Shown: one piece after another, positions 5,137 to 63,900 of the stretch
How positions within the stretch are numbered: position 1 is the stretch's first letter
Layout of the letters: each line of letters starts with the position of its first letter
Assembly (NCBI GenBank): GCA_017935745.1
Contig: JAGBGX010000016.1
Coordinates: 831-64,830, forward strand
Direction of reading: 5' to 3'
DNA: 64,000 nucleotides
From: Treponema sp.
Lineage (GTDB): Bacteria; Spirochaetota; Spirochaetia; Treponematales; Treponemataceae
The notes under the pieces: model-generated
What the model was told of the DNA's origin: nothing
The model's input: the letters and a program-made list of their open reading frames with translations, nothing else
Database searches by the model: none
Made by a program: the position numbers and the translations under genes

Positions 5137-6123
5137 TCAGTCAACATCGAGATCTTTCAAATCAACAGGATCACTCATTGATGTAATCATCCAACCAAGC
5201 CTTTTTGAAGAAGGAACTGATAGAGACCATCTTCTTTGCACCATGATAGTGTTACAGTCGTACCTGTTTGCATTTTCAAGCCACTTTTTGTATTCGCCTA
5301 AAGTGCCGTCCATAAGACCAATTGTATCAAATATTTTATTATCACTTTTATCTATATAACTATAATAAAGATCGCCTCCAATCCACTGTGTATATGAACG
5401 CCAGTGATCAGGATCTCCTACACAAACAGCAGCACCGTCACAGTTTTCCGCCTTCTTGGCTCCCTGAGGAAAGGCGAACTGTATATCAGGATCTTTAAAG
5501 TGAATAAAAATCACAGGTTTTTCTTCCGAATTGCCTTCACTATCCGTAAAGTCACCATTTTTTTCTGGAGAATACATTGTAACCACAGGCTTAAAATCGC
5601 TCCTGCTGGCTTTGATTCTTCCAAGGCCGCCAACTGCTGTAACGGTAACATGATCAGTGACAATATTCTTTCTCCAGTCAAGAGCACTATGATCAGAAGG
5701 ATCAAAGTCTACATCAATTGTGTATGTTTTTCCCGGCTCAACAAGCGGATACACAAGACCGTCCATATCTTCCATATCAACAGGACTTGCTTCCGGCGTA
5801 ATAGTGCCATCAGATTCTGCCGGATTACACCAAATATTGATATGCCCCACGCCGCCTAATTTCTCGATGCTGTCAGGAACTCTTATGTTAAAGTGAATGC
5901 CGTCACTTTCCGCCCATGCAGTCACTGCCTTGCGGCCGTCAGATGAAAGCAGCTCGCCTGAAACTGCCCCTTCCGGCTGAAAACCATTTGCACTGGAATT
6001 TCCTGAAGCTTCAGTATTTGAACCAAAACTGCCTGAGCCTGAATCCGAGCCGTCCGAGCAGGAAACAAACACCGCCGCTGCCATAATCAGGGCCGAAACA
6101 AATGAGAGCGCGCTTTTTTTCAT
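5137..6123 (-). CDS. Spirochaetal lipoprotein of unknown function
   Basis: MKKSALSFVSALIMAAAVFVS-C lipobox followed by a Ser/Gly-rich tether. Confidence 0.85.
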   Translation of the reverse strand: MKKSALSFVSALIMAAAVFVSCSDGSDSGSGSFGSNTEASGNSSANGFQPEGAVSGELLSSDGRKAVTAWAESDGIHFNIRVPDSIEKLGGVGHINIWCNPAESDGTITPEASPVDMEDMDGLVYPLVEPGKTYTIDVDFDPSDHSALDWRKNIVTDHVTVTAVGGLGRIKASRSDFKPVVTMYSPEKNGDFTDSEGNSEEKPVIFIHFKDPDIQFAFPQGAKKAENCDGAAVCVGDPDHWRSYTQWIGGDLYYSYIDKSDNKIFDTIGLMDGTLGEYKKWLENANRYDCNTIMVQRRWSLSVPSSKRLGWMITSMSDPVDLKDLDVD

Positions 6124-6155: not shown

Positions 6156-6182
6156 ATTCTACCCCCCCCCGATTTTTGTCAA
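6156..6182 (-). promoter_or_regulatory. Promoter with G9 in the -35/-10 spacer
   Basis: TTGACA-AAAATC-G9-TAGAAT (spacer 15), 33 nt upstream of the lipoprotein ATG. Confidence 0.75.
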
Positions 6183-23448: not shown

Positions 23449-23557
23449 CGCGCTATTTTACCATGCATGGCAGGAATATGCAATTCTGTGCCAGGCAAAA
23501 AACGCCGCGTCCTCCAAAAGAAACACACCGCGCCCGGCACAGGAAAAATGAGCGGAT

Positions 23558-23599: not shown

Positions 23600-24683
23600 C
23601 TAGAATGAATAGGTATATGTCAGCGGAAAGGAAATGAATGTGTCTCCGTCAACCGTTTCATAATTTACGCCTGCCTCAAAAGAATGGTTTCCGTACGCAT
23701 AGCCGATATTCGGATTCACGCCGATAACAGGCTTTTCTCCATCGGAAGAATTGTCAACAAGAAGGATTCCCGTGACATTTGCCGTGAACGACTCTGTAAA
23801 ATCATAGGCAGCCGTGCAAGCCACATACAAGTCATAGTCTGAATCCTTGTCATCCAAGTTCGCAAGAATTTCCGCAGCCACGCCAAATGCGCCAGCTGAA
23901 TACTCGGCCGCAGCACTCAAAAGATTTTCTCCGAACACACCGAATTCCTCTGAAATGCTCAGGTCATCAAATCCGGCAGCCTTTTCCTTGCTGTACGAGT
24001 ACCCCCCCCCGGATAACAAGCTCCTGCTCTGCAAGCGGCGCAACCTGCGCAAAAATGCCGAACGCCCTCTGGTCGCTGTCAGCAGCATCCTGAACAGAAG
24101 CCCCCGCAGAAAACAGCTCGCCCCATGCATAGCTGATTCCAAAGCCAACGTTGAACTTCATGTCAGAATCATCTTCATTTTTTCCGCTGAAGAAATTGAC
24201 ATCGTCTTCCCCGCCAAACGGAGCTGTTGCAGAAACGCTCAGTCCGTCTATCGGCCGGAAAATAACTGTAAATCCGTCCGAGCCGAAATTTCCCGTGCTC
24301 AGATTGTCATCATAAATCGGAAGATACGAACCGTCTGAATAAATGTCCTCATGAAATCCAAGCGACAGCTTTTCAACCGGGCGGAATTCAACAAACCAGT
24401 CAATGTCATCCCACGCCACGCCGAAATTCCTGCCGTTCCAGTCATCCAGTATAAACGTGACATCAATTCCGGCGTCAAGCCGTTCCGATGTAAACAGAAC
24501 GACCGCATTTTCTTCAATTCCGGCAAAATCTGTTTCCGTGCCGTCCGCACCGTAGGAACCGCCTTTTTTTATTGACGCGACATCAGACGAAAGCTCGCTT
24601 GTGAATTCAACCGTCTGGGCAGACAGACTGAAGCCGGCAAAAAGCAGCGGAACAAGAACCGCGGCAGCCTTATTGATTTTCAT
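23600..24683 (-). pseudogene. Outer-membrane beta-barrel protein frameshifted at a G9 tract (possible phase-OFF allele)
   Basis: Signal-peptide ORF 24683-23967 and barrel C-terminus ending TYTYSF join as ...VIRGGYSYSK... if G9 (C24002-24010) is G8; product 360 aa. Confidence 0.85.
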
Positions 24684-24719
24684 ATATACTCCTTAGAGGT
24701 TATTTAGTGCTAATTAAAA

Positions 24720-24762
24720 TTAGTTATAACTAACTATAAAGCATCCCGCCTTTCTTTGTCAA
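24720..24762 (-). promoter_or_regulatory. OMP gene promoter with palindromic operator
   Basis: TTGACA (24762-24757), N18, TATAGT (24738-24733); perfect palindrome TTAGTTATAACTAA at 24720-24733. Confidence 0.6.
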
Positions 24763-35225: not shown

Positions 35226-35275
35226 GAAAAAGTTGAAACCAGATTACCCCCCCCCGCCATTTTGTCAAGCATTTT
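35226..35275 (-). promoter_or_regulatory. Poly-G promoter block, copy A
   Basis: TTGACA-AAATGGC-G9-TAATCT (spacer 16); 36 bp (35240-35275) identical to 38441-38476. Confidence 0.8.
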
Positions 35276-38426: not shown

Positions 38427-38476
38427 TAAAAATCTGAAATCAGATTACCCCCCCCCGCCATTTTGTCAAGCATTTT
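38427..38476 (-). promoter_or_regulatory. Poly-G promoter block, copy B
   Basis: TTGACA-AAATGGC-G9-TAATCT; C9 at 38448-38456; direct repeat of copy A. Confidence 0.8.
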
Positions 38477-63367: not shown

Positions 63368-63900
63368 TTAACAACGCTCCTTGATTTTTCTAGCCGGGAC
63401 ACCTGCATATACGCAATTCGGTTCAGTTGATTTTGTAACGACTGCACCGGCACCGATTACACAGTTATCAGCAATCTTTATATTTCCAATCACAATGGAA
63501 TGAACTCCCATATTCACATTATCACCTATTACAGGAACTCCAAAATTACCAGCACCAATCACCCCCCCCGAATTACAAGATTTTTACCAATCTCAGTCTT
63601 TCCATTTATTACAACCCCTGTACAATGATGAATTACAAAACCACCACCAATTCTTGTTCTTGAAGGAATATCACAACCATTCTTTAATGAGATATATCTG
63701 TATAAAAATCGCTCCATACAATAAATTGGAAACAATACTTTTTTCGTCCGAAGAAACTGACACAATCTAAAATGAAAAACTATTTTAAATTCACGTAAAG
63801 TTAAAAACAAAAAGAAAAAATTTATTTTCTCTCTACCAAGTTCTATTCTCCATGCTTCCTTATCACTATTTAATAAATCCAAAAATTCAAAAAACTTCAT
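63368..63900 (-). pseudogene. Serine-acetyltransferase-like (LbH) O-acetyltransferase frameshifted at a G8 tract
   Basis: IGGGFVIHHCTGVVINGKTEIGKNLVIR-G8-TGA; continuation VIGAGNFGVPVIGDNV...IGAGAVVTK...YAGVPAR is in another frame; G9 or G12 restores it. Confidence 0.88.

Follow-up and report, generated by a model that had tools for sequence, protein, structure and literature searches.

Results

A porin-like gene split at a run of nine Gs

The window considered here, by which we mean the whole 64-kb stretch of DNA that was analysed, carries on its minus strand (23600..24683) a gene for a predicted porin-like outer-membrane protein (OMP) that is split by a frameshift. The gene, delimited by its reading frames, by full-length homologs and by the modelled barrel of a 98%-identical ortholog, breaks at a homopolymer of nine Gs (24002..24010, minus strand; C9 on the plus strand), which occupies codons 224-226 and lies 62% of the way into the coding sequence. 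Reading the frames across the window confirms that this split is a genuine observation. The first open reading frame, ORF1 (23967..24683, minus strand), encodes 238 amino acids, namely the signal peptide and N-terminal 224 residues of the barrel followed by 14 out-of-frame residues and a TGA stop. The C-terminal third of the barrel, about eight strands corresponding to residues ~227-360, follows in another frame (23600..24001, minus strand) and ends at a TAG stop. In the G9 state the gene measures 1084 nt (3n+1), and its in-frame state comprises 360 codons plus the stop. Translating the gene at each tract length yields 360 amino acids for G8, 238 for G9 and a truncated product again for G10, in agreement with a preliminary description of this locus according to which removal of a single G would join the two ORFs into a protein of 360 residues that has a signal peptide and ends in Phe. 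The one-frame protein starts with MKINKAAAVLVPLLFAGFSLSAQ and ends with FPLTYTYSF.

The predicted Sec signal peptide, MKINKAAAVLVPLLFAGFSLSA (24618..24683, minus strand; cleavage site presumed), contains no lipobox Cys, and at the other end of the protein aromatic and hydrophobic residues alternate (LTYTYSF) in a manner resembling a beta-signal with terminal Phe. A ribosome binding site, AAGGAG (24689..24694, minus strand), is located 5 nt upstream of the ATG and is preceded by a putative sigma-70-type promoter, TTGACA-18 nt-TATAGT (24733..24762, minus strand), which matches the consensus at 11 of 12 positions and has no G tract within it. A pattern match places a terminator-like hairpin with a T-rich tail on the 3' side of the gene (23524..23542, minus strand). 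A promoter scan of the OMP locus found nothing beyond the gene's own upstream promoter; the idea that the tract helps to drive the HD-domain gene downstream from within the OMP gene was dropped because no acceptable -35 stands at the right distance, TTGTTA being a mere 12 nt from TACTCG. For modelling, translating across the tract with a four-letter codon (CGGN read as Gly) was rejected, since in-frame CGG codons upstream, at positions 67 and 142, would then shift as well; the intact 98%-identical ortholog was used in its place.

The read-through protein is a predicted outer-membrane barrel

A search with the read-through protein retrieved 48 homologs of 343-404 amino acids that span both halves of the OMP, and these include two intact 360-residue orthologs, P0001 (98% identity) and P0002 (88% identity). 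Where the homologs have a name at all, it is that of a hypothetical protein from Treponema (either uncultured Treponema sp. or unclassified Treponema), and one fragment in a cluster of 59%-identical orthologs is labelled T. succinifaciens. The window and the loci of P0001 and P0002 have a common gene order, with a methyl-accepting chemotaxis protein (MCP), a pflA-like radical-SAM activase, the OMP, an HD_5 gene and an M20 peptidase. That alignments cross the junction throughout, in orthologs from the same neighbourhood, establishes the two ORFs as halves of one gene, as the preliminary description had assumed. The gene is single-copy in its own genome and, among 30 relatives, is present only in the same genus.

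Sequence profiles say little about what the protein is. The matches to Porin_4 (PF13609; 16.8 bits against a gathering threshold of 27) and PorP_SprF (PF11751; 17.7 against 22.3) fall below threshold, as does that to OMP_b-brl (PF13505), and the protein is assigned to none of these three Pfam families; among 34 family members only 4-7 show such weak matches to outer-membrane barrel models. There was no match to the OMP in NCBIfam, nor any match of the family profile to PDB sequences.

Structure prediction is more informative. An AlphaFold2 model of the intact ortholog P0001, built on a 34-sequence alignment, is all-beta behind an N-terminal helix (pLDDT 82.5, pTM 0.81). The helix, residues 5-19, coincides with the signal peptide region and has low pLDDT, which fits a cleaved leader. 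When the model was submitted to Foldseek, each of the best 50 PDB matches listed was an outer-membrane barrel, be it a porin, a substrate channel or the alginate exporter AlgE, with OprB, OccK/OprD, the major outer-membrane protein (MOMP) of C. jejuni, OmpC/OmpF and AlgE recovered at a probability of 1.00 and TM-scores of 0.45-0.58. The beta-barrel that had been proposed from the sequence is therefore supported by the predicted fold. Known porins of this kind (OprB, OccK/OprD, MOMP, OmpC/OmpF) share with the predicted protein a similar size, an all-beta barrel, a C-terminal aromatic residue and a signal peptide, and the OMP has a strongly conserved internal GSYLPIYDDN where porins have their constriction loop; it differs from them in its sequence identity of only 9-15%, in TM-scores no higher than the range given above and in lacking any Pfam porin match at threshold. 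On the strength of the model we call the protein porin-like by fold, of the roughly 16-18-stranded barrel class, and do not claim a named family for it. The tract codons sit in a strand predicted with high confidence (residues 221-231), so that the G9 product lacks the last ~8 strands together with the C-terminal aromatic signal and, if the model is right, would be unable to close the barrel.

Tract alleles in other strains

All population evidence comes from conspecific contigs (~99% nucleotide identity) in Logan and ENA, which we found by exact-protein look-ups. Tract patterns with flexible content had no match in JGI metagenome contigs or GTDB representatives once the genome itself was excluded, the species apparently being absent from both. 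Several kinds of allele are evident at the tract site. An interrupted form, GGGCGGGA, is found at locus L001 and in an 88%-identical relative (L002), where the gene is intact, and a second interrupted form, GGGCGGGG, occurs at loci L019-L022, which are intact at the tract site. An uninterrupted, in-frame G8 is present on six contigs (L028-30, L031, L032 and L033) that represent four haplotypes and encode intact 360-residue proteins reading IRGGY, so that the ON form anticipated from the sequence does occur in nature. Finally, G9 is carried by the window and by an independent Logan contig (L018, from SRR12529200) that is 100% identical to it over 1.4 kb. Altogether we encountered six intact 360-residue conspecific variants of the OMP.

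The G8 haplotypes are 10-16 substitutions apart and the overall pattern is mosaic. Being found on four diverged haplotypes, the uninterrupted tract is an established allele rather than a one-off. The G9 allele is distinguished in a different way: the extra G is the sole private position of the window's OMP allele when compared with all conspecific loci, and downstream of the tract the allele is free of additional stops, of indels and of substitutions peculiar to it, which means that the OFF allele shows no secondary decay.

Judged from these alleles, the tract appears to have been born within the species by point substitution from an interrupted GGGCGGG(A/G). The substitutions needed to form it are GCG to GGG, which replaces Ala by Gly, and GGA to GGG, which is synonymous. 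Of the eight conspecific haplotypes, three have the site interrupted; among the five that bear the tract, four have G8.

G tracts across the genome

Is a run of this length exceptional in its genome? The assembly (2.64 Mb, 20 contigs, 48.4% GC) contains 407, 21 and 2 G/C runs of lengths 5, 6 and 7, where ~2528, 612 and 148 would be expected from independent bases. Runs of at least 8 then number 82, with 35 at length 8, 44 at length 9 and three longer ones. The distribution is thus bimodal, G6-G7 being nearly absent ahead of the 79 runs at 8-9, and this depletion followed by a peak implies that the OMP tract is no chance run. The window alone holds five such tracts (6162-6170, 24002-24010, 35247-35255, 38448-38456 and 63562-63569), all five with C on the plus strand. 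Across the genus, the tract load of a genome, counted as overlapping G8 matches, lies anywhere between 1 and 134.

We scored the 80 tracts that have enough flanking sequence. Of these, 21 lie in promoter spacers, 4-10 nt downstream of TTGACA, with 20 of the 21 abutting TAnnnT; spacers are mostly 15-16 nt long (range 15-19), and in most cases a ribosome binding site and ATGAAAAA follow ~30-40 nt further downstream. Others, as read from sequence, are situated inside or just after lipoprotein signal peptides. Tracts inside genes are found, by Pfam assignment, in two N6_N4 DNA methylases and in one gene each for an Acyl_transf_3 O-acyltransferase, a BNR-repeat protein, a hexapeptide transferase, a CotH kinase and a trypsin-like protease. 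In the assembly, roughly twelve tract genes look OFF.

As a control tract we considered the G9 at 6162..6170 (minus strand), which occupies the spacer of a TTGACA...TAGAAT promoter before a lipoprotein gene (6123..5137). Here, too, strains differ in length: the window, L034, L036 and L038 have G9, and L035 and L037 have G8. Polymorphism between strains for G8 and G9 is therefore a matter of observation at two tracts.

Instability of the tracts is not to be sought in missing mismatch repair, an explanation we discarded on finding genes for MutL, MutS and a further MutS paralog.

A number of further features of the tract set deserve mention in their own right. At 55 non-promoter tracts whose flanks are unique, C precedes the run in 71% and T follows it in 62% (TA in 45%); neither the preference for C-Gn-T(A) flanks nor the almost exclusive lengths of 8 and 9 is confined to the promoter family. 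Two paralogous N6/N4 DNA methylases with a DPPY motif have a G8 directly after DPPY (C12:133905-133912 and C12:137294-137301), both apparently out of frame in this assembly, which makes them candidates for phase-variable regulation of the phasevarion type. At C13:182650 and C13:52018, tracts fall in ORFs with barrel-like C-termini and a terminal Phe, both of which look OFF; one encodes a 426-residue protein with a weak POTRA match and the other a trypsin-like protease whose C-terminal domain is rich in beta structure, and by their sequences the two may be further phase-variable outer-membrane proteins. In the relative L002 the HD_5 neighbour of the OMP gene is split (192 + 102 aa) beside a C8 run (L002:2918-2925) that the window strain does not have, indicating that tract positions turn over between close lineages.

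Several contigs also break near tracts. A G8 or G9 stands at, or within ~100 nt of, the contig end at C6:3-11, C11:3-11, C15:92-100, C16:92-100 and C14:79567-79574, these tracts belonging to a multi-copy repeat, CGCAAAACGCAC-Gn-TACGGCAGAACT. Similarly, Logan contigs L039 and L040 begin ~30 nt downstream of the promoter tract at 6162, and L038 begins 15 nt upstream of it. Such breaks could reflect length heterogeneity at the level of reads, or just repeats.

Probable switching, loss and regain of the same gene

We think it probable, at roughly 0.68, that the G9 is a slippage-prone contingency tract, now OFF, which controls the reading frame of a single-copy porin-like OMP and forms part of a genome-wide set. 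Under this reading, the gene, a member of an OMP family restricted to gut-type Treponema, would be transcribed from its own constitutive-looking promoter, and expression would be set by the reading frame as the G tract in codons 224-226 slips. With G8 the frame would be open, and the 360-residue precursor would be made, exported and inserted by way of its C-terminal aromatic beta-signal; with G9 translation would end after 224 native and 14 foreign residues, no barrel would form and the surface protein would be absent. The tract, having arisen from its interrupted predecessor, would have joined a phasome of ~80 G8/G9 tracts located in promoter spacers and in genes for surface proteins and modification enzymes. 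We further infer that flipping within a lineage is frequent, reversible and due to slipped-strand mispairing.

A slippage switch is not the only process that can leave a frameshift in a homopolymer. Imagine that in certain hosts the porin is a burden or a danger, as a phage receptor or as a target of antibodies or bacteriocins, or that it is simply dispensable, so that any mutation inactivating the gene is favoured or tolerated; the G9 allele would then be a young pseudogene, broken at its most mutable site. Some of the strains without an uninterrupted tract indeed carry knock-outs elsewhere in the gene. Locus L019 has gained a G in a G4 run (giving 169 + 186 aa), L020 and L021 have lost a T from a T5 run within the signal peptide, which leaves a 272-residue product (P0053, present on four contigs), and L022 has lost an A from an A7 run. 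These events are independent: L020/L021 and L022 are one substitution apart, yet their lesions differ. Counting the G9 of the window, there are six independent indel events in the OMP (1083 bp) versus none in the flanking genes of 747 and 825 bp at 12 loci, and the chance that all six should fall in the OMP is ~0.005 by simple length proportion. The excess of knock-outs is, in other words, specific to this gene. Loss extends beyond the species: in the T. succinifaciens-type ortholog, which is 59% identical, residue 123 is replaced by a TAG stop (GSY to GS*) at five loci from different samples (L023-L027). In that cluster of fragments (cluster 2) most lengths are possibly contig-end truncations, and the 122-residue nonsense allele is the only one verified at the DNA level; P0070 is probably chimeric, judging from a C-terminus that resembles a response-regulator receiver domain.

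These knock-outs, along with the absence of indels next door and the fact that the tract is not conserved throughout the species, are what loss of function would predict, and because the OMP is also disrupted at non-tract sites, selection for loss alone could explain G9 without any selected switching. Four observations argue against loss as the whole story. First, the window allele has suffered no secondary damage. Second, intact alleles are still common, both in the species, with its six intact variants, and in the T. succinifaciens-type ortholog, where an intact allele (P0007, 521 member sequences) is abundant alongside the nonsense one. Third, the species has both G8 and G9 alleles, and in length the tract belongs to exactly the class of the genome's other ~80 tracts. 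Finally, locus L031 (10001-11083) contains two indels 20 nt apart, one adding a G (G4 to G5) and the other removing one (G5 to G4), that compensate each other, so that five residues are rewritten (WGELFSAGAS to WGRAVFCGAS) and the 360-residue frame is kept. As far as sequence can tell, this pair is evidence of a lost frame regained, pointing to selection to recover the protein. Loss of function overlaps with the switch, reversibility being the sole difference between the two; we regard it as unlikely as a full account of the locus, although it is the strongest of the competitors. The most economical reading of the pattern is a slippage-prone contingency tract, at present OFF, in a porin whose expression is repeatedly selected for as well as against.

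A second concern is that the extra G is a sequencing or assembly error, the true tract being in frame and the gene intact. Homopolymers are the commonest place for consensus indel errors. Against this, an exactly identical 238-residue ORF1 product is found on 6 public contigs from several assemblies, including the Logan contig from another run; the genome is 99.95% complete, which speaks against widespread frameshift errors; and other G8/G9 tracts are in frame within ORFs of 899, 500 and 443 amino acids. We consider an error highly improbable. Less plausible still is that the G9 form continues to be expressed, RNA polymerase slippage or ribosomal frameshifting yielding some porin so that the tract merely tunes its dose: slippage on long homopolymers occurs in other bacteria, but G8 is the commoner natural form here, which suggests that the frame matters.

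Returning to the contingency switch, several features of the tract counsel restraint even so. In slippage switches the tract is more commonly found near the 5' end of its gene, and a position 62% into the OMP counts against a switch. With three of eight haplotypes interrupted, the tract does not qualify as a regulatory feature that is conserved, the predominance of G8 among tract-bearing haplotypes (four of five) means that it could be fairly stable, and with MutS and MutL present slippage rates need not match those of Campylobacter or Helicobacter.

Discussion

ON/OFF switching of surface proteins by poly-G tracts is textbook knowledge in Neisseria, Haemophilus, Campylobacter and Helicobacter. 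Phase variation of OMP genes by intragenic poly-G has been described in the first three of these genera, the meningococcal HmbR and HpuAB being examples (PMC3786947, PMC6321876), and the mechanism is well established (PMC3786947, PMC6321876, PMC2831843). The present case resembles those systems in having ~8-10 Gs within the ORF of a surface protein, such that one unit more or less toggles the frame from ON to OFF or back, and in having a genome-wide set of tracts, with bimodal run lengths, that is enriched in surface and restriction-modification genes. It departs from them in that the organism is a gut spirochete, the protein family is unrelated, the tract sits two thirds into the gene and lengths are nearly all 8 or 9; moreover, mismatch repair genes are present, and switching is inferred from alleles that differ between strains.

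Closer to home, T. pallidum has poly-G tracts at tprE/G/J, tprF/I, tprL and tp0126, the last encoding an OmpW homolog (PMC7864442). These tracts, of ~8-10 Gs, accompany putative OMP genes; their length varies in vivo, and some of them are inside ORFs (PMC7864442). Tracts in promoter spacers are likewise on record, for tp0126 and for porA of N. meningitidis (PMC7864442). The notion that OMPs are scarce in treponemes also stems from T. pallidum. Both organisms belong to Treponema in the broad sense, and in both one subtype of tract lies between the -35 and -10 elements, as at 21 promoters here. But the characterised T. pallidum tracts act on transcription through the promoter, whereas the OMP tract would act on the reading frame; the OMP, unlike the T. 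pallidum proteins, is neither a Tpr/MOSP nor an OmpW homolog; and the host of the ~80 tracts described here is of the free-living gut commensal type. A literature search on poly-G switching in gut commensal treponemes found no description of it. Most likely, then, the mechanism is a known one, and it is the gene and the host group that are new for a poly-G slippage switch. Modestly interesting additions are that the birth of the tract is visible in the population, that the porin has been lost in parallel and that the frame has been regained in one lineage.

It is tempting to join these elements into a single history, in which a contingency tract was born at the level of the species, the interrupted GGGCGGG(A/G) giving rise to G8 and G8 to toggling, in a porin under strong and fluctuating surface-directed selection as a phage receptor or antibody target; strains that never acquired the tract would have gone OFF through other short homopolymers, and at least one would have regained its frame by a compensating slip. 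We offer this history tentatively, as a possibility that falls somewhat short of even odds. The selective agent would presumably be directed at the cell surface, for example a phage, a host antibody or a bacteriocin.

What would follow for gut treponemes? Public data contain natural ON, OFF, tract-less and compensated alleles of the OMP, a series with which one can ask whether phage, IgA, bacteriocin or something else selects against a spirochete surface protein in the gut and which shows a contingency tract arising from an interrupted precursor. For annotation, two fragments that would pass as hypothetical proteins are best treated as one probable phase-variable OMP gene, and the ~80 tracts imply that some twelve genes which look like pseudogenes here are probably in a switch state. 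If the history sketched above is correct, gut treponemes, among them the lineages that characterise the guts of animals and of non-industrialised human populations, would run a phasome on the scale of that in Campylobacter, with ~80 G8/G9 tracts in a C-Gn-TA context and a restriction to two lengths, 8 and 9.
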